Source of the DNA: an uncultured Candidatus Saccharibacteria bacterium
Lineage (GTDB): Bacteria > Patescibacteriota > Saccharimonadia > Saccharimonadales > JALRHH01
Direction: 5' to 3'
Assembly: GCA_964639295.1 (NCBI GenBank)
Contig: CAZXDT010000002.1
Span: 134,896 to 198,895, forward strand
DNA length: 64,000 nucleotides
Part shown: positions 30,649-62,458 of the stretch, one piece after another
Numbering within the stretch: position 1 is the stretch's first letter
Layout: the number at the start of each line of letters is the position of its first letter
Position numbers and translations under genes: made by a program
Notes under the pieces: model-generated
Seen by the model: only the letters and a program-made list of their open reading frames with translations
What the model was told of the DNA's origin: nothing
The model's database searches: none

Positions 30649-32883
30649 ATGGCAAAGAAAAAACAAACCAGAAAGAAAAAAGTAGCACCAAAGGAGCAAG
30701 AACCTTCGCTCTTTTGGCCGATTGCGTGGGGAATTATCCTCATTATCCTAGCGATCTTGCTCTATATCGGTGGCTTCAACGCTGGTGGTCCTTTACCTCA
30801 GGCAATGTATGACGGTGTTTCTAGCGCATTTGGTAATGCTGCATTCGTTGTTGCTACGGCGCTACTCTACATGGGTATATTGAAGGTTGCCGATGAGGAC
30901 AAACGACTGCCTAAGGTCAAAAGTCTATTTACTGTATTGTTTGCAGTTTTCACTGCGGCCTTTTTGTATGTAGTTACTGCTGATAAGAGCGAACTTACAG
31001 GTGAATACACCGGCGGAGTAGGGGGCACAGTCGGTGCCGCTGTCGGTGGAGCATCACTTGGTATGCTGAGTACTGTTCTATCAACAGTAGTTTTGCTGAT
31101 ACTGATGGCAGTGAGTGCATGTTTGGCTACAGGTACACCGCTCAAGGTCCTACTCAAGCCATTCAAGGCGATGTTCCAGAAGCGTGAAAAGCGTGAGAAA
31201 GACACCGATATTGAGGCGCTCAAAGCAGAGAACGGCTTCAAGCGTGTAGAAGGTGTGCCAACAGTTCACCACGGGGCAGAAGCAGAGGCTGACAAGCAGC
31301 GTCCACGGCTCAGTAGTCTCAAAAATACTGCTGCCAAACTAACCCCAACAGAGAATCACGAGGCACTTACAACAGCAAGTGACCCAAACTGGCAGTTCCC
31401 GGGCATTAATTTACTAAACCAGAAACAGGACAAGGCAGATGCCGGTGACGTAGAAGGCAATGCCAATGCTATCCAGGAAACATTTGAACACTTTAATATT
31501 GCAGTAGAGATGGAAGGTGCCAATATTGGCCCGCGTGTTACACAGTACACCCTCAAGCCACCTACCGGTGTTAAATTGACCAAGATTACAGCCCTAGAAA
31601 ACAACTTAGCACTTGATCTGGCTGCAACTAGCATTCGTATGGAAGCCCCGATTCCTGGCAAACGCGCCGTTGGTATTGAAGTACCAAACGTTAAGCCAGC
31701 GATTGTTCGCATGGCAAGTTTGCTGCAATCACGTGAGTGGGCGGATATTAAGAGTCCACTGGGATTTGTGATTGGCAAAGACATCACTGGCGCGCCAGTT
31801 GTAGCTGATCTGGCCAAGATGCCTCACTTGCTCGTTGCTGGACAGACTGGTTCTGGTAAGTCCGTAATGATTAACGATATTTTGACCAGCCTGCTGTACC
31901 GCAACAGTCCGTCAGATCTTAAGCTTATTTTGGTTGATCCTAAGCAAGTAGAACTGACTCCGTACAACGATATACCGCACCTTCTAACCCCTGTTATTAA
32001 TGAGCCAGAGAAGTGTATTAGTGCGCTTAAGTGGGCAGTTGCCGAGATGGAGCGCCGTCTTAAGGCTATGAGTGAAGTTGGTCGTCGTAACATCGTCGAA
32101 TACAACAATCTGAAAAAAGAAGAAGGCATGCCGTATATCGTGATCGTAATTGATGAGTTGGCTGACCTGATGATGGTAGCTGCTCGTGATGTTGAGTCAT
32201 TGATTGTACGTTTGGCACAGAAGGCACGTGCCTCTGGTATCCACTTAGTGCTCGCAACGCAGCGTCCGTCCGTAGATGTTATTACTGGTCTTATCAAGGC
32301 TAACGTTCCTGCTCGTATTGCCTTTACGGTGGCTAGCCAGGTTGACTCACGAACCATTATTGACCAAGTTGGTGCAGAGAAATTACTTGGCCAAGGTGAC
32401 ATGCTGCTATCGACATCTGAAATGCCTAAACCTAAGCGTGTACAGGGTGCATTTATCGATGATGCTGAGACGCTAAAAGTTACTGACTTTATCCGTATGC
32501 AGCGTCCGCCACAGTACGATGACGAAATTATTAGTCAGCCAGTACAACTTAATGGCAAGGGCGGCATTGTAGCTGACTTTGGCGGCCAAGATGCAGACGA
32601 CGACATGTACAAAGATGCAGTCCGTGCAGTGATAGAAGCGCGCAAAGCAAGCACAAGCTTGCTGCAGCGCAGACTGCGCATCGGCTATGGCCGTGCAGCC
32701 CGCCTGGTTGAGACTATGGAAGAACAGGGCATCGTTGGCCCCGCAGATGGTTCACGCCCCCGAGAAGTACTAGTAAGCAGTCTAGACGAAGTATTTGGCA
32801 GCCCTGGTACATCTGACGACGTTCTCGACGAAAACTTCCCAGAGAATAAAGACGACCCCCGCGAAAACTACCTCGTCCAATAA
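30649..32883 (+). CDS. ftsK: DNA translocase FtsK
   Basis: N-terminal TM helices, motor domain with Walker A GQTGSGKS and Walker B IVIDELADL, and a C-terminal gamma domain (STSLLQRRLRIGYGRAARLVETMEEQGIV). Confidence 0.95.
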   Translation: MAKKKQTRKKKVAPKEQEPSLFWPIAWGIILIILAILLYIGGFNAGGPLPQAMYDGVSSAFGNAAFVVATALLYMGILKVADEDKRLPKVKSLFTVLFAVFTAAFLYVVTADKSELTGEYTGGVGGTVGAAVGGASLGMLSTVLSTVVLLILMAVSACLATGTPLKVLLKPFKAMFQKREKREKDTDIEALKAENGFKRVEGVPTVHHGAEAEADKQRPRLSSLKNTAAKLTPTENHEALTTASDPNWQFPGINLLNQKQDKADAGDVEGNANAIQETFEHFNIAVEMEGANIGPRVTQYTLKPPTGVKLTKITALENNLALDLAATSIRMEAPIPGKRAVGIEVPNVKPAIVRMASLLQSREWADIKSPLGFVIGKDITGAPVVADLAKMPHLLVAGQTGSGKSVMINDILTSLLYRNSPSDLKLILVDPKQVELTPYNDIPHLLTPVINEPEKCISALKWAVAEMERRLKAMSEVGRRNIVEYNNLKKEEGMPYIVIVIDELADLMMVAARDVESLIVRLAQKARASGIHLVLATQRPSVDVITGLIKANVPARIAFTVASQVDSRTIIDQVGAEKLLGQGDMLLSTSEMPKPKRVQGAFIDDAETLKVTDFIRMQRPPQYDDEIISQPVQLNGKGGIVADFGGQDADDDMYKDAVRAVIEARKASTSLLQRRLRIGYGRAARLVETMEEQGIVGPADGSRPREVLVSSLDEVFGSPGTSDDVLDENFPENKDDPRENYLVQ

Positions 32884-33090: not shown

Positions 33091-34089
33091 GTGAGTGATA
33101 TGCCAAGAATAATTACTGCGGACTGCCCCTTTCCAAAGGAGATTGATGATGGACTGTTTGTAGAGCGCATGGATGAAGATCACGAGTTATACCGGGTAGG
33201 TGTTTGCGTTGTTGACACATCTAGCGTCTACGACGAACCAAGTGTACTTGAGCAGGCATATACCAGAACAACAGCAAAATACTGGGATATCCCCGGGGAC
33301 GAACCAGGCTATGAGCCAATGATCGATCCGTCCATAATTAAGGGCCTTGAATTTACTGCTGGAAGCGTAAGAGATGCCCTTATAGTCACGTTTCTGGTTG
33401 GCGCCAAGAAGGAGCCTAGTGATGTTTCTGTTTCATTTGGCGAGGTAGAGGTAGCACATAATATGAGTTACAAAGACTTTGCTTATTACACAAGTTATAG
33501 AAGAGGAAAAAAGTTTGCGAATGCCAGCAGGCTGATAAAAGATCATCTGGGCTATGCGGCATATGGCGACCATGCAGGTACGCGACCACAGTGGCAGGAA
33601 GGGCAGTCACTTAACACATTAGGCAGAGCCAAGCGAGGTTCCAAAATGAACGAGGCATTTATGGTAGCTACTAATCATTTAGTTGGACAAATGCTAGCCA
33701 ATGAGGACCGGCAAGGGTTAGACATCTTTCGTATTCATGACCCTAAACATGACCCGGAAGATGAGCAATATATAGAGTTTTTACCAGCAAATGTTGCGCG
33801 TTTTAGTACAGTACCAGGTTTACACGCCGGGTTGGGACTGGATCCATATTGCAGAGTTACTTCTCCTCTTAGGCGCTTGGATGATTTTGTTATGAATTAC
33901 CAGCTCAAACAACGTTTCCTTGGCGTACAGCCTACAGCCCAAGATGCCGGAAGTGTTACGCTTGCGGTGGAAAGACTTACTCAGGAACTGATTGCTTCTG
34001 CTCCTGGAGCAGCATCCCGCTTTAACAGGCAAAGTGTATTGGGCAGGGCTGCTACAGGGCAAGTATTACCAATTGCAGTCGGTCAATAG
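33091..34089 (+). CDS. stand-alone RNB-domain (RNase II/R catalytic domain-like) protein
   Basis: RNB motif I-like DCPFPKEIDDGLFVE and motif IV-like CRVTSPLRRLDDFVMNYQL. No cold-shock or S1 domains fit in 332 aa. Confidence 0.6.
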   Translation: MSDMPRIITADCPFPKEIDDGLFVERMDEDHELYRVGVCVVDTSSVYDEPSVLEQAYTRTTAKYWDIPGDEPGYEPMIDPSIIKGLEFTAGSVRDALIVTFLVGAKKEPSDVSVSFGEVEVAHNMSYKDFAYYTSYRRGKKFANASRLIKDHLGYAAYGDHAGTRPQWQEGQSLNTLGRAKRGSKMNEAFMVATNHLVGQMLANEDRQGLDIFRIHDPKHDPEDEQYIEFLPANVARFSTVPGLHAGLGLDPYCRVTSPLRRLDDFVMNYQLKQRFLGVQPTAQDAGSVTLAVERLTQELIASAPGAASRFNRQSVLGRAATGQVLPIAVGQ

Positions 34090-34126: not shown

Positions 34127-34186
34127 AATCTAGCTATTAACTCAGTTCGCATCCATTACGTGAGTGCGGGCACTAACCAAGGGAGT

Positions 34187-34585
34187 ATGTCTATGACATC
34201 ACAGTACGAAATTGCTGTTCTCTATCACCCTGACTTGGAAGTAGATCTTTCCAAGGCAGAAGAAAAGGTAACCAAGATTATCACCGATAACGGCGGTAAG
34301 ATTGTTGCTACCGACAACTGGGGTAAGCGCAAGCTGCTCTATACTATCAAGAAGCTCGACCACGCTGTCTACGTGTTTTACACCGTAGAAATGCCTGGTG
34401 AAGGCGTTAAGAAGGTAGAAGCTACACTTAACATCACTGACGAAGTTATCCGTTATTTGTTGGTTAAACCAGATCTTAAGAAGATTGCTAAGGCAGAAGC
34501 TGCCAAGGCCGAGAAAGCCGCAAAAGCAGCTGCTCGTGGTGACCACGCAAACGACGATGATAAAGAAGACGAGAGCGAGGAATAA
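34187..34585 (+). CDS. rpsF: 30S ribosomal protein S6
   Basis: [11 protein letters not shown]...[12 protein letters not shown]...AVYVFY, with an acidic C-terminal tail. I chose start ATG 34187 (34193 is an alternative); the track GTG 34160 is less likely. Confidence 0.9.
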
Positions 34586-34587
34586 TC

Positions 34588-34791
34588 ATGGCTAAGATTT
34601 TTAAGCACAAGACAGACGTTGCGTACTTTGACTACAAGGACTTCAAGACCTTGCAGCGCTACATCAACGGTTTTGGACAGATCGAATCTCGTAAGAAGAC
34701 CGGTCTTAAGGAACACGAACAGCGCCGACTCAGCATTGCTATTAAGCGTGCTCGTCACCTAGCGTTGCTACCTTTCGTAGCTAACAACTAA
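34588..34791 (+). CDS. rpsR: 30S ribosomal protein S18
   Basis: [51 protein letters not shown]. Confidence 0.93.
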
Positions 34792-34810
34792 TCCCACGCA
34801 CTTTGCGCCA

Positions 34811-34860
34811 GCCCGGCCTGCTCATGAACCTCCGTCCATGACCCGCCGGGCTTCTTGGTT
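34811..34860 (+). terminator. terminator-like hairpin after rpsR
   Basis: GCCCGGC...GCCGGGC stem enclosing an inner TCATG/CATGA hairpin, followed by TTCTTGGTTATTTT. Confidence 0.5.
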
Positions 34861-34942
34861 ATTTTGGGCTTGAATCCTTACGGTACGCGTTCACCGTATT
34901 TAAATACGGCTCTCTTGCGTTCCGCGGATTCGTACCCAAACT
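34861..34942 (+). ncRNA. unclassified extended-hairpin element, copy 1 (E1)
   Basis: Boxes ATTTTGGGCT / CACCGTATTTAAATACGGCTC / CCAAACT. Stems UUUGGG/CCCAAA, GAAUCC/GGAUUC, CGGUACGC/GCGUUCCG and an apical CCGUAU/AUACGG. Confidence 0.5.
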
Positions 34943-35028
34943 AACTCAAGCGCAAAGCACGTGTTAGCAACATGCACATGCTTGCATCTTTTATCTTAGA
35001 GACGTACGATTTATGAAAGGGAGAAATC

Positions 35029-35331
35029 ATGGCATCGCTAGAGACAAATCCATATGTGGCGGCAATACCAATAGACATGACACCTATATGGGATGGCTTT
35101 GAACCAGGTAAGTTTTATGAACAGGTTGATTTAGGGTCTCGCGCAGCTGTGGAAGGACTTGCAAGTGCTCTGACGCAAAAGTTTGCAGACCGAAGAGTCA
35201 CTGTTCCTGTTGCGACCATAGCTAATCAAATTGAATGGGTTAATTCGCTAATGCCAGGTGAGTACGTTGTTTTTACCGGCAAAGATCACTTTGAAGATGA
35301 GATTGCCCGTGTATATCAACGAGTTGATTAA
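35029..35331 (+). CDS. hypothetical protein
   Basis: 100-codon ORF with a GGGAGAA SD. It lies between element E1 and ssb. Confidence 0.5.
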   Translation: MASLETNPYVAAIPIDMTPIWDGFEPGKFYEQVDLGSRAAVEGLASALTQKFADRRVTVPVATIANQIEWVNSLMPGEYVVFTGKDHFEDEIARVYQRVD

Positions 35332-35409
35332 CTTGATCATTTATTAATTTAGCGTTACGGTAGTAGTACAAATTAAATGGACATAGATCCATACAAGGAG
35401 GAATGCCAC

Positions 35410-35883
35410 ATGGCACGTAGTTTCAACCAAGTAATATTAATGGGGAACTTGACCCGTGATCCAGAGCTTCGTCAGACACCTAACGGTCAGTCTGTGACGA
35501 GCTTTAGTTTAGCGCTGAACCGTAGTTACAAGGCTGCAGATGGCAACTGGACCGAAGCAACTGATTATATCGATGTAGTTGCGTGGGGCCCGTTAGGTGA
35601 GCGTGTAGCGCAGTACCTGACAAAAGGTCGCCCGTGTTTGGTTAATGGTCGTTTGCAATCACGTAGCTGGGAGCAAGATGGCCAAAAGCGCAGCAAGGTA
35701 GAAGTTAACGCTCAGGACGTAACCTTCCTTGGTGGCGCAGGCGGTGAAGGTGGAGCTCCACGCAGTGGCGGTGGCGAGTTTGACCAGTCAGCCAAGCCAG
35801 CTCCAGCAGCTAAGAAAAAAGACGACATTGTTATTGAAGATATTGGCGATGAGCCAATTAATTTGGACGACATCCCTTTCTAG
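35410..35883 (+). CDS. ssb: single-stranded DNA-binding protein
   Basis: FNQVILMGNLTRDPELRQTPNGQSVTSFSLA OB fold, a Gly-rich linker, and the C-terminal DDIPF tip. I chose the start at MARSFN; the track starts at 35377. Confidence 0.93.
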   Translation: MARSFNQVILMGNLTRDPELRQTPNGQSVTSFSLALNRSYKAADGNWTEATDYIDVVAWGPLGERVAQYLTKGRPCLVNGRLQSRSWEQDGQKRSKVEVNAQDVTFLGGAGGEGGAPRSGGGEFDQSAKPAPAAKKKDDIVIEDIGDEPINLDDIPF

Positions 35884-35899
35884 ACCATTTTGATTGCAC

Positions 35900-35982
35900 A
35901 TTTTGGGCTAAGGCCTGCGTCAAAAACTCTCACTGTATGTTAAATACGGCTCGTGTTTTGTGCTCGGCATTAGCTCCAAACT
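35900..35982 (+). ncRNA. unclassified extended-hairpin element, copy 2 (E2)
   Basis: It has the same three boxes as E1 at identical spacing (21 and 23 nt). The stems have different sequence but keep their pairing, including G.U pairs that work only on the + strand. Confidence 0.5.
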
Positions 35983-36021
35983 GCATTAATCAAAAAGTCC
36001 TAGAAACAGAGGTAATTTATA

Positions 36022-36351
36022 ATGAATAGTAGTTCTCCGTTTTTATTGGCGAAGCAGTTGCAGATGGATGTTCTGGGGCTGCTTTCTGGTATAGATATTA
36101 CTGATTTGAATGCTAGTGAGCAGAAGGTCTTAGCTCGGTTGAAGAGCGGGTTAGTTGATATACGGTTGGAAGTTCAAGATTATGAGCTGGCAGAAACGCG
36201 CGAGTTGCAGCTGGAAAATGCCAAAAAGGCAAAGGGATATCTGAAGCTGGTTGAGAAAACAATTTCGGATAATACGCTCAACGTCTTTGGCCCGGTTGAT
36301 GTAGCTCACCTAACAGCGTATATTGGACAGATAACGGATAGGTTGGAATAG
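36022..36351 (+). CDS. hypothetical small helical protein
   Basis: 109-codon ORF with a GAGG SD. It is the first gene of a tightly packed run ending in efp. Confidence 0.5.
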   Translation: MNSSSPFLLAKQLQMDVLGLLSGIDITDLNASEQKVLARLKSGLVDIRLEVQDYELAETRELQLENAKKAKGYLKLVEKTISDNTLNVFGPVDVAHLTAYIGQITDRLE

Positions 36352-36638: not shown

Positions 36639-37205
36639 ATGGCATTAGGTGTTACAGATTTAAAAAAGGGACAAGTTTTTCAGATGGACGGCGTGCCGTA
36701 CCGCGTAGTTGAATATGGTCAAAAGGTCATGGGACGCGGTGGCTCTATTGTGAACGTCAAAATCAAAAGTCTAATTGATGGTAAAGTTTTGGCCAAAACG
36801 TTCAAAGGCAGTGAATCTATTGAACCAGCACACGTTACAAACAAGAATGTGCAGTTTTTGTATTCAGACGACGCTAACTTCTACTTCATGAACGAAGATA
36901 CATATGAGCAATTTGAGCTTTCCGCAGAAGATATGGAAGACCAAAAAGGCTTTATGAAGGAAAGTGACGTGGTTCAAGCCCAGCTGTTTGATGGCCGTGT
37001 GATTAACATTGAACTTGCTAAAAATGTGCCACTGAGAGTGACTTATACTGAAGATGTTGTTAAGGGCGACACCACCAGCTCAGTTCTAAAGGATGCTACC
37101 GTGGAAACGGGAATAACCGTTAAAGTTCCGGCATTTGTGAAGAACGGTGATCTTATTAGTGTGGACACCACAACTGGTGCTTACCGTGAGCGCGTCAAGG
37201 AATAG
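36639..37205 (+). CDS. efp: elongation factor P
   Basis: DLKKGQVFQMDGVPYRVVEYGQKVMGRGGSIVNVKIKSL, with the conserved loop and the three-domain length. Confidence 0.93.
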   Translation: MALGVTDLKKGQVFQMDGVPYRVVEYGQKVMGRGGSIVNVKIKSLIDGKVLAKTFKGSESIEPAHVTNKNVQFLYSDDANFYFMNEDTYEQFELSAEDMEDQKGFMKESDVVQAQLFDGRVINIELAKNVPLRVTYTEDVVKGDTTSSVLKDATVETGITVKVPAFVKNGDLISVDTTTGAYRERVKE

Positions 37206-37206
37206 T

Positions 37207-37746
37207 ATGGTCGAACTTACAGAAGCAAGGCTTTCAAGAACTGCTATAGTTCTTACCCCTGACGAACAAGAGCTTGGTACGCACGTGACAGAGCTACCCA
37301 GACAGCATTTGCACATTGTGCCATCATTCTTAGCCGGTACAGAAGAGGCTGATGAGCTAGCAAGACGACTTGCTTCGCCGCTTGCACAAAATGTGTTTGA
37401 GATTAGCTCTCTCGAATCTAGGATTGAACGAGGCCGTCTAGTACAGCGGTTAGGTGGCAGTGTATTGCATAACATACACGATGAGATACTTACTGTCCTC
37501 GAAGATATGAATATCCCAATTCATGCTAAGCCATTTAAAGAAGGTACTGTTCAGACATGGTACAAGGGCACTTGGAAGATTCCTGAAACTCGAACAGCTA
37601 TCGGAAGGGTTTTACTGACCCAGGAAAAACAAGGTATTGGTGGCTGGCGAAAGGTGCTTGAACGCAAGCTATCACAACCGAACCATGACTTCCGTACTGA
37701 TGTCGATACGTTACGTTATAACCAATTGATGAGTATCAAAAAGTGA
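37207..37746 (+). CDS. hypothetical protein
   Basis: ORF starting at MVELTEARL, 2 nt after the efp stop. The track start 37147 overlaps efp. Confidence 0.5.
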   Translation: MVELTEARLSRTAIVLTPDEQELGTHVTELPRQHLHIVPSFLAGTEEADELARRLASPLAQNVFEISSLESRIERGRLVQRLGGSVLHNIHDEILTVLEDMNIPIHAKPFKEGTVQTWYKGTWKIPETRTAIGRVLLTQEKQGIGGWRKVLERKLSQPNHDFRTDVDTLRYNQLMSIKK

Positions 37747-38459
37747 AGCATAGACTCGACCAAGTAATGGCCGCAAAAGGGCTTGTGTCTTCGCGGAGCC
37801 AAGCAGAGAGTTTTATACGACTTGGGCAAGTACTGGTGAATAAAAAAGTCGTGACAAAAGCCGGAACTATGGTCGGGGACACCGATGTTATTGTACTGAC
37901 TGCTACTGAACAATATGTTTCACGGGCTGGGCTTAAACTGGCGTCCGTCGCAAAAATACTGAAGGTAGATTTCCGTGGAAAAACCGTTCTCGACGTGGGA
38001 TCTAGCACTGGTGGATTCACTGATTATTCACTTAAGCATGGAGCTGAATATGTAATAGCGGTAGATGTTGGAACAAACCAGTTACACCCAACACTTCACG
38101 GTAATCCTAAGATAGAACTACATGAACAAACAGATATTAGAGACGTAAAAGAGACTTCAAAACCAATCGATATCGTGGTGATTGATGTGTCTTTTATATC
38201 GCTAAGGGAAATTTTGCCAACAGTTGCCAGACTATCAACTAAGACTACTCAAGTTGTTGCTATGGTGAAGCCACAATTCGAAGCAGGCAACAATGCCAAG
38301 CACAAAGGTGTGATCAAAAACGATCGTATGCGCAGGGATATCTTACAAGACTTCGAACAATGGGTGCGGAATAGTTTTGTCATCCAGGATAAAGCCGACA
38401 GTGAGGTTGCTGGCAGTAAAGGCAACAGAGAACGATTCTACCTCTTAAAAAAGAGCTAG
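37743..38459 (+). CDS. tlyA: TlyA-family rRNA 2'-O-methyltransferase
   Basis: S4 domain (RLDQVMAAKGLVSSRSQAESFIRLGQVLVN) followed by an FtsJ-like domain (VLDVGSSTGGFTDY). Confidence 0.88.
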   Translation: MKHRLDQVMAAKGLVSSRSQAESFIRLGQVLVNKKVVTKAGTMVGDTDVIVLTATEQYVSRAGLKLASVAKILKVDFRGKTVLDVGSSTGGFTDYSLKHGAEYVIAVDVGTNQLHPTLHGNPKIELHEQTDIRDVKETSKPIDIVVIDVSFISLREILPTVARLSTKTTQVVAMVKPQFEAGNNAKHKGVIKNDRMRRDILQDFEQWVRNSFVIQDKADSEVAGSKGNRERFYLLKKS

Positions 38460-38507
38460 ATTACATAATCCTTATGCTAAGATATAGATATGGTTAGAGC
38501 TTGCGCA

Positions 38508-38607
38508 CTTGGGTGGCCAGTGCATTTTTTTGCCGAGAAGCGCAACGAGCCGTACAAATGGTACGGTGACGAGAGCATCACAGGCAAAAAATGTGCTGGG
38601 CGCCAAG
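38508..38607 (+). ncRNA. unclassified 100-nt extended hairpin (E3)
   Basis: The ~25-bp outer helix CUUGG..CCAGUGCAUUUUUUUGCC / GGCAAAAAAUGUGCUGG..CCAAG has two wobble pairs that are valid only on the + strand. The apical hairpin is CCGUAC-AAAUG-GUACGG. Confidence 0.45.
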
Positions 38608-38665
38608 AATACCTTAATAAGAGCAGACTTGTTCTGGTCTTAGAAAGGTGTGGTGCGTAGCTCTA

Positions 38666-39367
38666 ATGTATTTTAAAAGTCGGGCAGAGGCTGGTCGGTT
38701 ACTGGCTGACAAGCTAGAACAATATAAGGCCCAGAATATTGTTGTAGTTGCCCTAGACGAAGGCTCAAGTATTGTTGCAGCACAAATTGCCATGAAGCTA
38801 CATGCCAATATGGTGCTCTATCTCATTAAGAATATTTATTTACCGGGTGAGACCCAGGCACTTGCTGGTATGAGTGCGCAAGGAACGTACTCTACAAATG
38901 ATTATTTTAGTGCCGGTCAGCTTGAGGATATGTCCACCGAGTATCACAATTATATTGATCAGCGCCGTATGGAGGCCAACCACGAGCTACACATACTACT
39001 TGGTAGGGACGGGGAAATTGATAAAAACTTGCTTCGCCACAGGGTAGTTATTGTAGTAGCAGATGGTTTGGCGAATGGCTTTTCACTGAAGGTTTGTGCT
39101 GATTTCCTCAAGACCATAGCTATCAAGAAAATGGTTGCTGTGACTCCGGTGGCTAGTGTCCCGGCGGTTGATCGTATGCATCTGATCTCTGATGAAATAT
39201 GCGTCCTATCTGTTACGGAAAACTTTATGGGTCCTGACCATTATTTTGATGATAATACGGTGCCAGAGATCGATAGCGTGCTTAAAATTATGCGTAATAT
39301 AACGCTCAGCTGGGAACGAGTGGCTCCAAAATCTCCTAGTCCAGTGCTTGACAACGGGGTAGCATAA
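38666..39367 (+). CDS. predicted phosphoribosyltransferase-family protein
   Basis: N-terminal MYFKSRAEAGRLLADKLEQY and a PRPP-loop-like VVIVVADGLANGFS. Confidence 0.65.
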   Translation: MYFKSRAEAGRLLADKLEQYKAQNIVVVALDEGSSIVAAQIAMKLHANMVLYLIKNIYLPGETQALAGMSAQGTYSTNDYFSAGQLEDMSTEYHNYIDQRRMEANHELHILLGRDGEIDKNLLRHRVVIVVADGLANGFSLKVCADFLKTIAIKKMVAVTPVASVPAVDRMHLISDEICVLSVTENFMGPDHYFDDNTVPEIDSVLKIMRNITLSWERVAPKSPSPVLDNGVA

Positions 39368-52001: not shown

Positions 52002-53810
52002 ATGAGTGTGCTTTCGGCAACAACCCAAAAACAAGTAGAAGCAAAACTCGTCACTGACGGGCTTATTAGTGACGAGAAACTCAAGGAAGTTACCGAAAAG
52101 GCAAAGACAGACGGTAAGCCCTTATTCGCGGCGCTTGTCCAAGAAGGGTTTATCACCAATGAAGCTTTGACCAAGACAATTGCTGCAGTTACGAAAATGC
52201 CCTACGTTAATTTGCTAAATGCACAGATTGACGCTAATATTTTAGCCTTGTTACCACAAGAAGTTGCTGAGCGTTATATGGCGGTTCCTTTAGGTGAAAT
52301 GGAGCGTCGTCTTGTGGTGGCTATGCTTGATGCCGACAACGTACAAGCAGTGGATTTCTTGGCAAACAAAATTGGGCGCCCACTTAAGGTATATGCTGCA
52401 AGTGAAGAGGGCATACGCAATGTATTGAAACAATATGAGGCAAAAATAAGCTCAAATGTTGCAGCTGACTTTGCGGCTGATACTGCAGCGATCGCTGCTG
52501 CAGACAGAGACAATGGTCAACCAAGTGAGCCAAATGATAAATCCAAGTCCATTACAACAATTGTTCAAGATTCACCGATCAGTAAAGCGCTAAACACCAT
52601 TATGGAATACGCCGCTAAAAACAGAGCGAGTGATATACACATTGAACCTTTAGAGAAAGAACTTAAAATTCGTTGTCGTATAGACGGAGTAATGCGAGAA
52701 ATATTAAAGCTGCCAAAGTCGACCGAGGCACCACTTGTTTCTCGTATCAAGATTTTGTCGAATCTTAAGATTGATGAACACCGCGTTCCACAGGATGGTC
52801 AATTTAGTGTCCACGCTGCAGGCAAAGACATTGATTTACGTATCTCTATATCCCCAGTCGTATGGGGAGAGCAGGTGGTCATTCGTTTACTAGACAAGTC
52901 CGGCACGAGTTTGATGCTTGAAGATATGGGATTCAGGGGCAGGGCGCTGAGGACAATACGTACTGGTTTGGAGCGTCCAAATGGCATGATTTTGACATCC
53001 GGCCCAACAGGTTCTGGTAAGTCTACCTCGTTATATGCACTCTTAAACGAGATCAAGAACGACACGATTAACATCGTGACACTCGAGGACCCAGTTGAGT
53101 ACAAGATGGATGGCATCAACCAAATTCAAGTTAATGCTGATGTTGGGCTGACCTTTGCGGCTGGACTTCGTTCTATCTTGCGTCAAGACCCTGATGTCGT
53201 GATGGTGGGTGAAATTCGTGACAAAGAGACGGCAACTCTGGCTGTTCAGGCTGCGCTTACGGGCCACCTTGTCTTCAGTACACTCCACACCAACTCTGCT
53301 GCTGGTATTTTGCCACGTTTACTTGATATGGGTATTGAGCCATTCCTTATAGCTAGCACCGTTCATACAGTTATTGGACAACGCCTAGTGCGTCGTATTG
53401 CAGATGAGGGTAAAGAGACCTATCAATCTGATAAGGCGGAAACAACGGCAGTCCACGAGGCTCTCGGTAAGTTTTTGCCACAAGATAAAGAAGGTCTTGC
53501 CAAAGCTTGCGAGGATTTAGGGTACGAAACCTTGCCACTAGGGGGTGATACCGCTTATACTTTGACCAAGGGCAAAGATAGTCCGTCAACGCCAGGTGGG
53601 TACAAGGGGCGAATGGGATTGTACGAAGTCTTTGGAATCACTGATGAAATCCAAGACCTCATTCTCAAACGATCAACCAGTAGTGAGATCCAAGAATTGG
53701 CTCGTCAGCAAGGGATGATAACCATGCGAGAAGACGGCTACCTCAAGGCACTGGCGGGGCAGACAACGCTCACGGAAGTTAACCGAGTAGCAGCCTCTGA
53801 GGGCGCGTAA
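52002..53810 (+). CDS. pilB: type IV pilus assembly ATPase PilB (GspE family)
   Basis: Walker A GPTGSGKST, Asp box, Walker B, and a His box (LVFSTLHTNSAA). Confidence 0.93.
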   Translation: MSVLSATTQKQVEAKLVTDGLISDEKLKEVTEKAKTDGKPLFAALVQEGFITNEALTKTIAAVTKMPYVNLLNAQIDANILALLPQEVAERYMAVPLGEMERRLVVAMLDADNVQAVDFLANKIGRPLKVYAASEEGIRNVLKQYEAKISSNVAADFAADTAAIAAADRDNGQPSEPNDKSKSITTIVQDSPISKALNTIMEYAAKNRASDIHIEPLEKELKIRCRIDGVMREILKLPKSTEAPLVSRIKILSNLKIDEHRVPQDGQFSVHAAGKDIDLRISISPVVWGEQVVIRLLDKSGTSLMLEDMGFRGRALRTIRTGLERPNGMILTSGPTGSGKSTSLYALLNEIKNDTINIVTLEDPVEYKMDGINQIQVNADVGLTFAAGLRSILRQDPDVVMVGEIRDKETATLAVQAALTGHLVFSTLHTNSAAGILPRLLDMGIEPFLIASTVHTVIGQRLVRRIADEGKETYQSDKAETTAVHEALGKFLPQDKEGLAKACEDLGYETLPLGGDTAYTLTKGKDSPSTPGGYKGRMGLYEVFGITDEIQDLILKRSTSSEIQELARQQGMITMREDGYLKALAGQTTLTEVNRVAASEGA

Positions 53811-53830
53811 AGACGGATATAAGGAAAAGG

Positions 53831-54904
53831 GTGGATATGCAAGGACAACCAAGAATCGAGGTACTCCTCGAAGAAGTAATCAAAAAGAAGGCATCTGACC
53901 TTCATATTCAAGTTGGCCTCGCGCCAATGTTACGTGTCGACGGTGCACTTATACCAGTACCAAGTACTGATGTTCTGACTGAAGAAGCGGTTGAGGCACT
54001 GGTGTTTGCTATTTTGGATGAAGACCAGAAGCAGATCTTGCTTAAGGACAAGGAATTCGACTTCAGTTTTGCCTTTGGTGATCTGGGCCGCTTCCGTGTG
54101 AATGCTTTTCACGAACGTGGTAACTTAGCCGCTGCACTCCGACTTATCCCTAACGAAATCTTGACTACTGAACAGCTCGGTATGCCAGAAATTGTCAAAA
54201 AGTTTGCTGATTATCCCCGTGGTTTAGTACTTGTTACGGGACCAACAGGTTCCGGTAAGTCAACAACGCTCGCAGCACTCGTGGACAAGATTAACACCGA
54301 GAAGTCGGCACATATTGTTACTATCGAAGACCCGATTGAGTTCACGCACAAGTCAAAGAAATCAGTCATCGTACAACGTGAAGTCCACTACGATACGTAT
54401 TCATTCTCTGCTGCGCTTCGTTCATCACTCCGCCAGGACCCTGATGTCGTACTGATTGGTGAGATGCGTGACCTTGAGACCATTGCAGCCGCTATTACTA
54501 TTGCAGAAACAGGACACTTGGTCTTTGCAACACTCCACACTAACAGTGCAGCGCAGTCTATTGACCGTATGATCGATGTTTTCCCGCCGCACCAACAGCC
54601 ACAGATCCGCGCACAGCTATCTAATATCCTTATGGGGATTTGTTCACAGCGTCTCATCCCATCCATTGGTGGTGGTCGTGCGGTGGCTGCAGAGGTGCTT
54701 ATTGCTACCCCCGCAGTACGAAATATCATTCGTGAGGGCAAGAGTCACCAGCTTGAGGCAGTAATCCAGACCGGTGCAGAGTTTGGCATGCAATCAATGG
54801 ATAAACAACTGGTTACCCTTATTCATAATGGTACGATCACGTATGATGAGGCGCGCAACTACGCTGTTGACCTTGACGAGTTAGACAGGCTAATGAGGAG
54901 TTAA
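53831..54904 (+). CDS. pilT: type IV pilus retraction ATPase PilT
   Basis: ASDLHIQVG, GPTGSGKSTT, and LVFATLHTNSAAQSIDRMIDVFP. The alternative start is ATG 53837. Confidence 0.93.
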   Translation: MDMQGQPRIEVLLEEVIKKKASDLHIQVGLAPMLRVDGALIPVPSTDVLTEEAVEALVFAILDEDQKQILLKDKEFDFSFAFGDLGRFRVNAFHERGNLAAALRLIPNEILTTEQLGMPEIVKKFADYPRGLVLVTGPTGSGKSTTLAALVDKINTEKSAHIVTIEDPIEFTHKSKKSVIVQREVHYDTYSFSAALRSSLRQDPDVVLIGEMRDLETIAAAITIAETGHLVFATLHTNSAAQSIDRMIDVFPPHQQPQIRAQLSNILMGICSQRLIPSIGGGRAVAAEVLIATPAVRNIIREGKSHQLEAVIQTGAEFGMQSMDKQLVTLIHNGTITYDEARNYAVDLDELDRLMRS

Positions 54905-56230: not shown

Positions 56231-56689
56231 ATGTCATTACAACAACTTAAAAAGAAAACAGAAGGCTTCACTATTATCGAAGTCTTGATCGTGCTGGCTA
56301 TTGCTGGTTTGATCTTGTTGATCGTATTCTTGGCTGTTCCAGCCTTACAGCGTAACTCACGCAACACTCAGCGCACAGACGATGTTGCTAGAGTACTTGG
56401 TGCAGCGCAAGAAGTACTGAACAATAATAACGGTAGTCTTGCAGCGCTCGATGACGCTCATCTTCAGGCAGCTGTGGGTGATTCGTTAGCATACTACGAG
56501 ATTGCCAACGTTACTGTAGCTGGTAGTGGTGCCAACGGTGCGATTGATAATGTTGATGCTATTCAGATTCGTACTGGTGCATCTTGTGCTACTAATGGTG
56601 ACGCAGCGGATGGTACAACTCGTCAACTTGTAGCACAGTTTACAGTTGAAGGTGGTAATGGTACTGTGGGTCGTTGTCAATCAAGTTAA
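56231..56689 (+). CDS. pilA: major type IV pilin
   Basis: Class III signal ...KKTEG|FTIIEVLIVLAIAGLILLIVF. AAGGGGG SD upstream and a strong terminator downstream. Confidence 0.88.
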   Translation: MSLQQLKKKTEGFTIIEVLIVLAIAGLILLIVFLAVPALQRNSRNTQRTDDVARVLGAAQEVLNNNNGSLAALDDAHLQAAVGDSLAYYEIANVTVAGSGANGAIDNVDAIQIRTGASCATNGDAADGTTRQLVAQFTVEGGNGTVGRCQSS

Positions 56690-56702
56690 ACACGAACCTG
56701 TT

Positions 56703-56740
56703 AAACAAAAACACGCTGGATATCCAGCGTGTTTTTGTTT
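56703..56740 (+). terminator. rho-independent terminator (38-nt perfect palindrome)
   Basis: AAACAAAAACACGCTGGAT|ATCCAGCGTGTTTTTGTTT. Confidence 0.85.
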
Positions 56741-56753
56741 AACATAAGCTTAA

Positions 56754-57590
56754 ATGATTATAGTAGCCCTAATATTTCTTGGTCTCTGCTTAGGGAGTTT
56801 TGTAAATGCCTTGGTGTGGCGCCTGCACCAGCAGCAGTTACCTAAGAAAAAGCGGGCTGCTTCCAATAAAGAGCTGTCCATAGCTACAGGCAGGTCTATG
56901 TGCCCCCACTGCAAACATGTACTCGCTTGGTATGATCTATTACCTGTCATTAGTTGGTTAAGCGTGAGTGGTAAGTGCCGGTATTGCAGTAAGCCCATTG
57001 GCTGGCAGTACCCAATTGTGGAACTACTGACTGCAGTACTATTTGTTTGGTCATACACAGCCTGGGATGCATTTCTAAACGTAGGAGACCAGCTGCACAT
57101 TGGTTTGTTTGCGCTGTGGCTTGTGAGCCTGGTGATGCTCGTAGCGCTTACAGTATATGACTTGCGATGGATGCTACTGCCTAACCGAATTGTGTTTCCA
57201 CTATTAGGAGTCGCTGTAGTGCAAGTGCTCTTACGGTCACTAGATAACGGTGCTGATGAAATTCTGAGTTCATTTGGAGCATTGTTGGTCGCTGGCGGTA
57301 TCTTTTACATATTGTTCCAAGTATCTAGTGGTAAATGGATTGGCGGTGGTGATGTTAAGCTTGGGTTTGCTCTTGGCTTGTTACTTGGAGATCCTGTGCT
57401 GGCATTCATGATGTTGTTTACCGCATCAGTATTGGGGCTTATTGTGGCCTTGCCTGGAGTGATACTTCGTAGAACCGCTCTTTCAAGTAAAATACCGTTT
57501 GGCCCATATCTCATACTAGCCACAATTATAGTAAAACTATATGGTACAGGCGCCTGGGATTGGTACCAGGCTTATTTCCTAGGCATGTAA
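56754..57590 (+). CDS. pilD: prepilin peptidase (A24 family)
   Basis: N-terminal GSFVNALVWRL, a Cys motif (CPHC...CRYC), multiple TM helices, and GGGDVKL. Confidence 0.9.
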   Translation: MIIVALIFLGLCLGSFVNALVWRLHQQQLPKKKRAASNKELSIATGRSMCPHCKHVLAWYDLLPVISWLSVSGKCRYCSKPIGWQYPIVELLTAVLFVWSYTAWDAFLNVGDQLHIGLFALWLVSLVMLVALTVYDLRWMLLPNRIVFPLLGVAVVQVLLRSLDNGADEILSSFGALLVAGGIFYILFQVSSGKWIGGGDVKLGFALGLLLGDPVLAFMMLFTASVLGLIVALPGVILRRTALSSKIPFGPYLILATIIVKLYGTGAWDWYQAYFLGM

Positions 57591-60551: not shown

Positions 60552-61487
60552 TTACTGGTTACGTTTGTGGTGGAACTTTTCGTGGACTGACTTTAGGTGG
60601 GGATCAGTGACATGGGTGTAGATCTGGGTTGTTGAGATGTTGCTGTGGCCAAGCATGGCTTGGACAGAGCGTAGGTCAGCGCCGTTCATAAGTAAGTCTG
60701 TAGCAAAGCTATGACGCAGTGTGTGCGGGCTGACATGTTTGGTTATGCCAGCTAGTAATGCGTACTTGGCCACCATTCTTTGAACACTCCGTGCAGTTAG
60801 ACGGTGAAAGTTACCGGAAGTATCAACAGTTTTCTTGCCGCTGTATCGGGCAAATAGTGGACGGGCAGTATCTGTTCGCTTTTCTAAGTATTTAGTAATC
60901 CACTCAGCTGCTTCTTCGCTAATGAAGATTGGACGGTCTTTCTGGCCCTTACCACGGACCATAAATTCACGACGTTTGCTATTAATGTGTTCGCGGTCAA
61001 GTCCGACAAGCTCTGATACACGAAGACCTGAGGAAAAAAGTAGTTCCAAGATGGCACGATCACGCAAGCCGGGGAGGGTACTAATATCAGGCTCGGCGAA
61101 TAAGCGTTCTAGTTCCTCTGGATTCAAGAAAGTCACTTGTTTGCGAACGGTTTTAGCTAACTCAATTTTATCTGCGGTTAGTGCTGGGATGTCGCGCTTG
61201 GCACAGAACTTGAGGAAGCTCCTTAAAGCAATAAGGTGATAGTTCTGGGTATTCTTCTGCAGCTCATCACTGACGTTAGTGCCCAGCCGATTGAGCCACA
61301 GTCGCCATTTACGGATAAGTTCCGGGTCGATGTCGCTAATTTTAATATCACCGGCAAAGTCACTCAGGCGTGTTAGGTAGTGATCGTAGTTCCGGATCGT
61401 CTTTTGCGAACGGTTCTGCTCGATCTCAAGGTATTCCAGGAAGTCGACTTTGGCTTTTGTGAATAACATAACCATATTGTACGACAC
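60552..61487 (-). CDS. tyrosine site-specific recombinase, XerC/XerD type
   Basis: Core-binding N-domain and a catalytic domain with GLRVSELVGL (Arg), HTLRHSFATDLL, LGHSNISTTQIYTHV (Tyr). Confidence 0.88.
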   Translation of the reverse strand: MSYNMVMLFTKAKVDFLEYLEIEQNRSQKTIRNYDHYLTRLSDFAGDIKISDIDPELIRKWRLWLNRLGTNVSDELQKNTQNYHLIALRSFLKFCAKRDIPALTADKIELAKTVRKQVTFLNPEELERLFAEPDISTLPGLRDRAILELLFSSGLRVSELVGLDREHINSKRREFMVRGKGQKDRPIFISEEAAEWITKYLEKRTDTARPLFARYSGKKTVDTSGNFHRLTARSVQRMVAKYALLAGITKHVSPHTLRHSFATDLLMNGADLRSVQAMLGHSNISTTQIYTHVTDPHLKSVHEKFHHKRNQ

Positions 61488-62137: not shown

Positions 62138-62158
62138 CTGCTCTATCCATTGAGCTGC
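62138..62158 (-). repeat. inverted copy of the tRNA-Arg D-arm region
   Basis: The reverse complement GCAGCTCAATGGATAGAGCAG matches tRNA 62201..62221 at 20 of 21 positions. Confidence 0.85.
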
Positions 62159-62194
62159 TGTCATTGGATGGTGTAAGTTATAGTATGGTTATAT

Positions 62195-62270
62195 GCCTCG
62201 GTAGCTCAATGGATAGAGCAGTTCCGTCCTAAGGAAAAGGTTGCAGGTTCGACTCTTGCCCGGGGCACCA
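62195..62270 (+). tRNA. tRNA-Arg (anticodon CCT), CCA encoded
   Basis: Manual cloverleaf: acceptor GCCTCGG/CCGGGGC, D arm GCTC-AATGGATA-GAGC, anticodon arm GTTCC-GTCCTAA-GGAAA, T arm GCAGG-TTCGACT-CTTGC, then A73 and CCA. Length 76 nt. Confidence 0.88.
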
Positions 62271-62272
62271 GG

Positions 62273-62314
62273 AGAAAAGTAAAACCACCACAAATGTGGT
62301 GGTTTTACTTTTCT
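62273..62314. terminator. terminator hairpin with a perfect 19-bp stem, directly after the tRNA
   Basis: AGAAAAGTAAAACCACCAC-AAAT-GTGGTGGTTTTACTTTTCT. Confidence 0.8.
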
Positions 62315-62458
62315 GCTCGATACATCGAGCCAAGAGTCGATCCTCTAGGTTCGGTCATCAAAGCCGCACGCAGAAGTTTACTTCGAGTACGGCTGTAGAT
62401 GTGCACTCTCTTGCCTGAGTATTATCTGTTAAAATAAATCCTAACAAAGGAGTGACTT

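Follow-up and report, generated by a model that had tools for sequence, protein, structure and literature searches.

Long, covarying hairpins at gene ends in Candidatus Saccharibacteria: a widespread and apparently undescribed family

REP hairpins stabilise the mRNA that lies upstream of them. Integron attC sites come right after cassette open reading frames (ORFs) in a polar arrangement, and the strand that folds is the complement of the one carrying the ORF. In Enterobacteria and Pseudomonas, REP, BIME and REPIN elements constitute extragenic, multi-copy hairpins that often follow genes, persist vertically over long times and undergo compensatory change (PMC3116915; bioRxiv 10.1101/2021.07.10.451892), and RNase R and PNPase act on REP-containing mRNAs as structured substrates (PMC12320835). 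Here, we analyse a 64,000-nucleotide (nt) stretch of an uncultured Candidatus Saccharibacteria bacterium (assembly GCA_964639295.1, contig CAZXDT010000002.1, positions 134,896 to 198,895), hereafter the window, in which two hairpin elements, E1 and E2, are located downstream of rpsR and ssb, respectively. Together with a third copy in the same window, they are members of a widespread and apparently undescribed hairpin family that is comparable to these systems in some respects and departs from each of them in others.

The original prediction, made from the sequence alone, described E1 and E2 as two elements of about 82 nt sharing three boxes, and direct reading of the sequence agrees with it at each box. 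The 5' box ATTTTGGGCT occupies positions 34861-34870 in E1 and 35900-35909 in E2. The central box reads CACCGTATTTAAATACGGCTC (34892-34912) in E1 and CACTGTATGTTAAATACGGCTC (35931-35952) in E2, with the consensus CAC[C/T]GTAT[-/G]TTAAATACGGCTC, and the 3' box CCAAACT lies at 34936-34942 and 35976-35982. The spacers between boxes are exactly 21 and 23 nt in both elements, the sequence within them is unrelated, and a pairwise alignment of E1 and E2 returns the identical three boxes. The stacked helix proposed for the two elements also stands (z = -5.4 and -4.4), and none of 200 dinucleotide shuffles folds equally well. The extent and number of the elements were revised upwards: the ~82-nt segments are present, yet they form only the core of longer hairpins at 34845-34957 and 35870-36013, and the window holds three copies instead of two, the additional one at 38501-38616 on the minus strand. 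Likewise, the 5' and 3' boxes occur in E1 and E2 but not family-wide; they represent a small conserved internal loop, ATT / ACT, and an adjoining stem common to E1 and the E2 lineage. The features of the three copies are as follows.

34801-34957, plus strand: three-way junction enclosing E1, defined by sequence and fold; its outer stem pairs CTTTGCGC (34801-34808) with GCGCAAAG (34950-34957).
34810-34852: terminator-like short GC hairpin of rpsR (AGCCCGGC / GCCGGGCT) inside the junction, with a T-rich tail at 34853-34865.
34845-34957, plus strand: long hairpin of E1, sense to the flanking genes, defined by a match to covariance model R2.
34891-34893 and 34910-34912: loop A of E1, TCA / CTC.
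34894-34899 and 34904-34909: apical stem of E1, CCGTAT / ATACGG, with the loop TTAA.
35870-36013, plus strand: full hairpin of E2, 144 nt, defined by an inverted repeat, an R2 match at 35879-36002 and the fold.
35870-35895 and 35988-36013: outer stem of E2, pairing the final ssb codons and stop with CTAGAAACAGAGG.
35930-35932 and 35950-35952: loop A of E2, TCA / CTC.
35933-35938 and 35944-35949: apical stem of E2, CTGTAT / ATACGG.
38501-38616, minus strand: third copy, inverted relative to the flanking genes, defined by an apex scan and covariance-model matches.
38547-38569: apex of the third copy as read on the plus strand, with GAG (38547-38549), CCGTAC (38550-38555), GTACGG (38561-38566) and TGA (38567-38569).

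Covariance model R2 was made solely from metagenomic relatives. Run over the 64-kb window with filters off, it returned exactly three matches, namely E2 (96.6 bits, E = 3e-26), the third copy (46.3 bits, E = 8e-11) and E1 (44.6 bits, E = 2.5e-10). That a model derived from metagenomic relatives picks out exactly these three elements argues that they are not a product of chance.

The junction around E1 begins 10 nt past the rpsR stop codon TAA (34789-34791), a terminator-like site is flagged at 34845-34859, and the same layout of outer stem, long hairpin and short hairpin is found at three other loci (L048, L069 and L077). In the outer stem of E2, the ssb stop codon TAG (35881-35883) pairs with CTA within CTAG (36000-36003). 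The next ORF has its ATG at 36022, 8 nt past the end of the 3' arm of E2, and its Shine-Dalgarno-like AGAGG (36008-36012) falls within that arm. Flanking the third copy are genes for a TlyA-like methyltransferase (37743-38459) and a phosphoribosyltransferase (38648-39367).

The covariance-model search proposed along with the original prediction yielded many further homologues, both in Saccharibacteria and in metagenome contigs. Among 80 loci retrieved with the SSB protein, all from Candidatus Saccharibacteria genomes, a relaxed apex motif and a first covariance model gave about 30 copies. E2 orthologues directly follow ssb in 10 other loci (L053, L020, L035, L063, L027, L009, L051, L006, L019 and L068). 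E2 is missing from the three loci whose SSB is most similar, and in L003, a close SSB relative without E2, a canonical terminator occupies the same site after ssb. In metagenome contigs, which were scanned with the exact pattern TCACCGTAYN{3,8}RTACGGCTC, at least 120 loci carry the apex pattern; about 105 of the 120 matches listed are long hairpins. The covariance-model matches range from 29 to 73% GC. Some contigs encode a sigma-54 activator, adenylate cyclase or TonB-dependent receptor, as in outer-membrane bacteria, and this gene content is the reason why the family seems to reach outside Patescibacteria. One metagenomic contig (L093) has three family copies within 15 kb; in its segment 1-2370, a family hairpin (apex 2297-2319, same strand) precedes the 5' end of a 23S rRNA gene by about 250 nt.

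Across the family, the hairpin measures 110-145 nt, and every copy is intergenic. The apical stem comprises 6 base pairs (NNGTAY / RTACNN), of which the two outer ones covary (CC/GG, CT/AG, AT/AT, TC/GA), and it carries an apical loop of 3-8 nt without conservation. Adjoining this stem is the 3x3 internal loop A, with the sense-strand sequence TCA / CTC. Below loop A, the hairpin contains one or two more conserved internal loops: a second loop, (C)TTCGTTG / CGCCTYG, is present in most metagenomic copies, and the small loop ATT / ACT, within the conserved box GCAC..ATT / ACT..TGCA, is also among the shared features. The stem sequence is arbitrary and pairing is kept through compensatory change; the three window copies have only boxes in common, and their stems are unrelated. 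In the following, the T strand is the one that reads TCA-NNGTAY-loop-RTACNN-CTC (plus for E1 and E2), and the G strand is its complement, GAG...UGA.

Covariation in the E2 orthologues and in the metagenomic copies bears out the proposal of a selected single-strand structure instead of a decaying repeat. For 11 E2 orthologues from 11 species, RNAalifold gives 42 pairs, 20 of them with compensatory double changes, and changes in the outer stem track the stop codon (TTTTAAC / GTTAAAA versus TTCTAG / CTAGAA). Among 36 unrelated metagenomic copies, double changes occur in 34 of 40 pairs. In these copies, 87.8% of alignment cells are paired, against 56.8% after shuffling and 35-41% with the partners slid, and the covariation score reaches 0.638 compared with 0.165 for shuffled alignments; the 36-copy alignment was fitted to the structure and is hence biased in its favour, but the difference is wide. 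Folding is also seen for every copy taken singly. MAFFT combined with RNAalifold on mixed paralogues yields the apical stem only, because indels shift the stems out of register, a difficulty overcome by iterated covariance models.

The assertion that the elements match no known RNA family agrees with Rfam searches at gathering and permissive thresholds. Rfam 15 returned one tRNA only for the whole window at the gathering threshold, a single chance-level match for 34700-36100 at E <= 10, and LSU rRNA only for 15 element-bearing loci. Full-text literature searches likewise gave no description of the motif.

The position of the hairpins relative to genes is polar. Of 111 copies, 58 have the stop codon of an upstream T-strand gene 35-59 nt ahead of loop A, and in 43 of the 111 it ends 45-54 nt ahead of this loop. 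This peak is absent for convergent genes on the opposite side and for downstream start codons in the same 111 copies. With a distance of 46 nt, E2 fits the register exactly, while E1, at 99 nt, represents a minority class whose long hairpin is separated from the stop codon by a terminator-like one. Along the upstream side, pairing with the opposite arm rises from about 0.35 inside the ORF to 0.55-0.7 over the 4 nt that precede the stop codon, and to about 0.7 at the stop and beyond. The 3' foot of the hairpin is the reverse complement of the stop codon (TAA/TTA, TAG/CTA), and this also applies to the E2 orthologues. Natural C-termini are unaltered, as in S7 (...AFAHFAW) and in SSB, whose ...DDIPF terminus is intact, with E2 pairing across the stop.

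Orientation and gene identity follow a pattern as well. Between co-directional gene pairs, 28 copies display the T orientation and 5 are inverted. The upstream genes are mainly abundant housekeeping genes: EF-Tu, GroEL, L7/L12, S15, S1, RpoD, GyrB, S7, S18 and SSB were recognised by Pfam or flanking-ORF clustering, and L10, L31, SecY, ATP synthase subunits and ribonucleotide reductase by reading the sequences. Many copies are located inside operons, with the next ribosome-binding site within 0-20 nt.

Taken together, the stop-codon register, the orientation bias, the kind of upstream gene and the terminator found at the E2 site in L003 point to a function of, or a constraint on, the sense transcript. 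We therefore tentatively favour, with a probability of roughly 0.4, a cis-acting RNA hairpin of the sense transcript at gene ends, similar to REP elements. In this scenario, RNA would be the active molecule, the sense strand would be the one that folds, and the hairpin would have a stabilising or insulating role and a protein partner. From the stop codon of a gene that is usually highly expressed, the hairpin would extend through and fill the 3' untranslated or intercistronic space, where it could shield the upstream cistron from 3' exonucleases, insulate it and set the 3' end, as hairpins of the REP type do in E. coli. The conserved loops and the apical stem may be recognised by a putative protein. 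In E2-like cases, ribosomes that terminate on the upstream gene would melt the outer stem, free the following ribosome-binding site and thereby couple both genes. A broader proposal, which we consider less likely than not, is that these hairpins constitute a new cross-phylum cis-element read by a conserved factor at the ends of highly expressed genes, either as an RNA signal or as a folded single-stranded DNA (ssDNA) site.

Confidence in the sense-RNA reading is held at this level because of three sets of observations that weigh against it: the asymmetry between the strands, the conserved inverted copies, and the terminator that precedes E1-type hairpins. All three fit an ssDNA element of the REPIN or attC type better. 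As for the first, the original prediction held that the structure works only on the plus strand; comparison of both strands speaks against this, as in E1 and E2 the minus strand is at least as stable when folded. RNA energies for minus and plus strands are -46.4 and -43.5 kcal/mol for E1, and -47.0 and -44.2 kcal/mol for E2; with DNA parameters, the minus strand is better for E1 and equal for E2. Across the family the two strands differ by about 10 kcal/mol, the G strand being the more stable one in 26 of 29 copies from Saccharibacteria and 111 of 115 from metagenomes. Moreover, non-Watson-Crick positions on the T strand are almost all pyrimidines. Sense copies contain 126 Y.Y and 18 R.R mismatches together with 85 bulged pyrimidines and 25 bulged purines, and inverted copies contain 59 and 4 mismatches and 26 and 3 bulges, respectively. 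Since inverted copies have the same bias, the asymmetry is intrinsic to the element, and it is the G strand that has purine-rich loops. The T strand is C-rich (C 29.7%, G 20.8%). Functional RNAs more often show purine-rich loops.

Wobble pairs are split and give no basis for assigning the folded strand. A strand-neutral arm alignment has 373 G.T-type positions on the G strand versus 276 on the T strand, clustered by position, whereas the T-fitted alignment counts 75 versus 32 in favour of the T strand. In the alignment of E2 orthologues, five columns are dominated by a G.U on the G strand, with Watson-Crick pairs as the alternative, compared with only one invariant G.U on the T strand, while minority wobble cells favour the T strand by 22 to 10. 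The apical U.G pair of E2, which had been cited as proof of plus-strand folding, is real, but it is a single data point that does not fix the folded strand; it looks like an intermediate between CCGTAT/ATACGG and the CTGTAT/ATACAG of orthologues. The gene context, through the polar stop-codon register and the orientation bias, favours the plus or sense strand. Fold energy points to the G strand and gene context to the T strand, and wobble pairs give signs of both, so that either strand may be the folded one.

Inverted copies are kept, with covariation, across species. An inverted element resides within the ssb 5' leader of L048, L069 and L011, where the apex covaries (TCGTAT, CTGTAC, CCGTAC), and it is absent from the ssb leader of the window and of L020. 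L077 carries an element equivalent to the third window copy, likewise placed upstream of the homologous phosphoribosyltransferase gene. Such conserved inverted copies imply that the structure is maintained in either orientation, at odds with a purely sense-RNA role. Finally, as a terminator-like hairpin with a T-rich tail precedes the E1-type hairpin, much transcription may stop before the long hairpin is reached.

Among the alternatives, an ssDNA element comparable to REPINs or attC sites survives best, although we regard it as unlikely on balance. Here, the purine-rich strand (minus for E1 and E2) would fold, and a putative recombinase or HUH transposase would spread or rearrange the copies. 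Gene ends would be the sole tolerated or targeted insertion points in compact genomes, and the orientation bias would reflect the replication strand or the survival of copies in an inactive orientation. The element-borne asymmetry, which is independent of gene orientation and combines purine-rich loops and bulges with a lower energy under RNA and DNA parameters, is consistent with such an element, and so is the structural conservation of inverted copies. Its presence is patchy, considering the lack of E2 in the three closest SSB relatives and of the ssb-leader element at some loci. Gene order around ssb and rpsR varies among copy-bearing genomes, and the very different contig GC and gene content suggests horizontal spread. 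The placement directly after ORFs, the polarity and the better folding of the ORF-complementary strand are likewise those generally known for attC.

Several results argue against this ssDNA element. No transposase, integrase or reverse transcriptase recurs among 350 ORFs neighbouring the copies, whose clusters are housekeeping families. The sole recombinase in the window is XerC/XerD-like (257 and 256 bits, under the equivalog cut-offs) and scores 136 bits against an integron-integrase model with a cut-off of 265. There are no target-site duplications, the flanks being inverted and not direct repeats, and the three window copies, with just their boxes in common, bear no sign of recent copying. 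E2 is fixed at one locus in 11 species with compensatory evolution, and an exact register with the natural stops of essential genes is hard to obtain by DNA insertion alone. Identity with integron attC sites was rejected specifically: the R'' (RYYYAAC) and R' (GTTRRRY) boxes are absent, the ends are variable and simply complementary, and the copies are dispersed, without cassette arrays.

A second alternative, which we deem improbable, posits independent small RNA (sRNA) genes on the purine-rich strand, each producing a hairpin RNA of about 120-140 nt that is antisense to the 3' end of the neighbouring gene and binds or titrates a protein. It would account for the better folding of that strand, for its purine-rich loops of the tandem G.A type (GAG / UGA), and for the five E2-orthologue columns with a dominant G.U on it. 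The polar stop-codon register would be left unexplained. On the G strand, no -10-like box recurs at a constant distance upstream and no U-tract follows, and a simple promoter scan of the E1/E2 region gave background level only. In addition, E2 ends 8 nt from the next start and its orthologues stand about 25-30 nt from the rpsR start, which leaves no room for a promoter.

Ordinary Rho-independent terminators with long stems are a still poorer account, and we consider them very improbable in spite of the location of the hairpins at gene ends and the canonical terminator that stands in the place of E2 in L003. Downstream of the hairpin, 109 copies show no U-tract, with a mean of about 3 T in the next 10 nt on both strands alike. 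Many copies are intra-operonic and stand directly before the next ribosome-binding site, normal terminators are used elsewhere in the genome, including one directly before E1, and intrinsic terminators do not feature conserved internal loops. Both an intrinsic terminator and an sRNA gene with its own promoter were thus rejected as identities on account of the lacking U-tract and positioned -10 box.

A double-stranded DNA operator, for example a LexA-type SOS box CCGT-N8-ACGG controlling ssb and surrounded by incidental complementarity, is effectively refuted: the E1 apex CCGTATTTAAATACGG is a perfect 16-bp palindrome, which we take to resemble the CTGT-N8-ACAG SOS box, and ssb is an SOS gene in some bacteria, but the CCGTAY and RTACGG half-sites stand 3 to 8 nt apart depending on the copy, too variable a spacing for a dimeric DNA-binding protein, around 40 further base pairs covary, and copies stand beside many unrelated genes.

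Two further identities were discarded. Domain V of group II introns is a 34-nt hairpin with a 2-nt bulge and, over its AGC-containing lower helix, an upper helix capped by GNRA. Resemblance to it is restricted to the lower helix, GAGCCGUAY..RUACGGU (GAGCCGUAU..AUACGGU), which we take to be a partial likeness and not a match; the upper helix and bulge are missing, and a variable loop of 3-8 nt caps the hairpin directly. Phage origins were dismissed as only one of eight pattern matches in viral contigs is a full-length element.

Nearly every gene in the window is on the plus strand, and the genes around E1 and E2 are as follows.

30649-32883: ftsK.
33091-34089: RNB-domain gene.
34160-34585: rpsF.
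34588-34791, plus strand: rpsR, ribosomal protein S18 (Pfam Ribosomal_S18, E = 8e-19), with E1 following its end.
35029-35331: ORF100, between E1 and ssb.
35377-35883, plus strand: ssb (Pfam SSB, E = 1.4e-35), with its stop codon in the base of E2.
Between E2 and efp: two small ORFs.
36639-37205: efp.

ORF100 has no Pfam match, and only four homologues were found among 5.8 billion clustered proteins, all of them between rpsR and ssb. In L001 and L002, an additional small ORF separates the ORF100 homologue from ssb. The order in the window is rpsF-rpsR-ORF100-ssb (34160-36351); in many related Saccharibacteria, ssb is directly followed by rpsR, or the order is ssb-E2-rpsR (loci compared with the window: L008, L010, L012, L053 and L020). 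The rearranged segment is flanked by family hairpins. The RNB-domain ORF (RNase II/R family; 332 amino acids) has a partial RNB match and may be truncated or mis-started.

Other structured or repeated segments of the window lie farther away. The gene for the tyrosine recombinase (311 amino acids, 60552-61487, minus strand) is situated about 700 nt from tRNA-Arg(CCT) (62195-62270), which sits within dense inverted repeats (62138-62344). There, 62138-62156 is a perfect 19-nt reverse complement of the 5' part of the tRNA (62203-62221), 62245-62258 pairs with 62331-62344, and a hairpin with 23-nt arms (62270-62317) directly follows the tRNA. With only 14.7 bits for R2, this region is not a family member. 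A perfect 46-bp palindrome (56699-56744) with 23-nt arms and no spacer, TGTTAAACAAAAACACGCTGGAT / ATCCAGCGTGTTTTTGTTTAACA, fills the gap between the ORFs at 56231-56689 and 56754-57590; flanked by an A-run and, at its opposite end, a T-run, it resembles a two-way terminator. Two adjoining paralogous ATPase genes (52002-54904) contain 73%-identical stretches about 1240-1250 nt apart (direct repeats D1, D2 and D8) and Walker-A-like motifs; they are probably of the PilB/PilT type, as a candidate label.

Motifs of such size and covariation are rarely still uncatalogued: the family combines about 40 covarying pairs, three conserved loops and more than 100 independent copies. It is located at the stop codons of core genes (tuf, groEL, rplL, rpsG, rpsO, rpsR, ssb and rpoD) in the ultra-small genomes of Saccharibacteria, where non-coding DNA is scarce, and seemingly in unrelated GC-rich bacteria too. 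If the hairpins are an RNA signal, they would add a layer of control at gene ends together with a putative binding protein, coupling the end of translation either to what happens at the mRNA 3' end or to how the next gene is expressed. If they are a DNA element, they would represent a new type of persistent hairpin replicator or recombination site, a class of folded sites that mark gene ends outside the REP-RAYT and integron systems. In either case, the covariance model is ready for the annotation of many genomes and offers a handle on gene expression in hard-to-grow Patescibacteria.

Comparison with known systems places the family close to several of them. Like REP and REPIN elements, the hairpins are extragenic, occur several times per genome, often just past genes, and are kept by compensatory change. 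Unlike them, each is a single hairpin of 110-145 nt with conserved internal loops, whereas a REPIN consists of paired 20-40-nt REPs; copies within a genome have only short boxes in common, and their arms are not palindromes. The hairpin also starts at the stop codon in a fixed register, and the contigs span 29-73% GC. No GTAG-type foot was seen in the family, and RAYT (a Y1 HUH transposase) is not recurrent among the 350 ORFs adjoining copies, nor is it present among ten scanned window ORFs.

The likeness to attC extends to an imperfect palindrome of similar size, conservation of structure over sequence, and a polar position at or overlapping the upstream stop codon. The strand complementary to the ORF folds better here too, with wobble evidence that is split. 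Differences lie in the apex, which is conserved in this family and variable in attC, and in the neighbours, which are essential housekeeping genes in conserved operons.

The TRIT motif of Mycobacterium tuberculosis, reportedly described in the RNIE paper as a conserved terminator-like hairpin after many genes, is similar in its recurrence downstream of many genes in the sense orientation. The present family differs in being much longer, with three internal loops, no U-tract, many intra-operonic copies and a distribution over distant lineages. The MITE-like ERIC, Correia and bcr1 repeats share with it an intergenic size of 100-150 bp and the formation of an RNA hairpin when co-transcribed, which in those repeats has orientation-dependent effects on mRNA. 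Unlike these, the present copies are highly diverged and anchored at stop codons, without terminal inverted repeats or target-site duplication. A MITE identity was rejected on similar grounds, as the repeats at the flanks are inverted, not direct, and take in the stop codon, and the outer stems have no conserved sequence. Judged by REP units, attC boxes and integrase, a U-tract, and terminal repeats and duplicated target sites, then, these hairpins fit none of these classes, and what the family has in common with all of them is that it is an extragenic hairpin conserved in structure.

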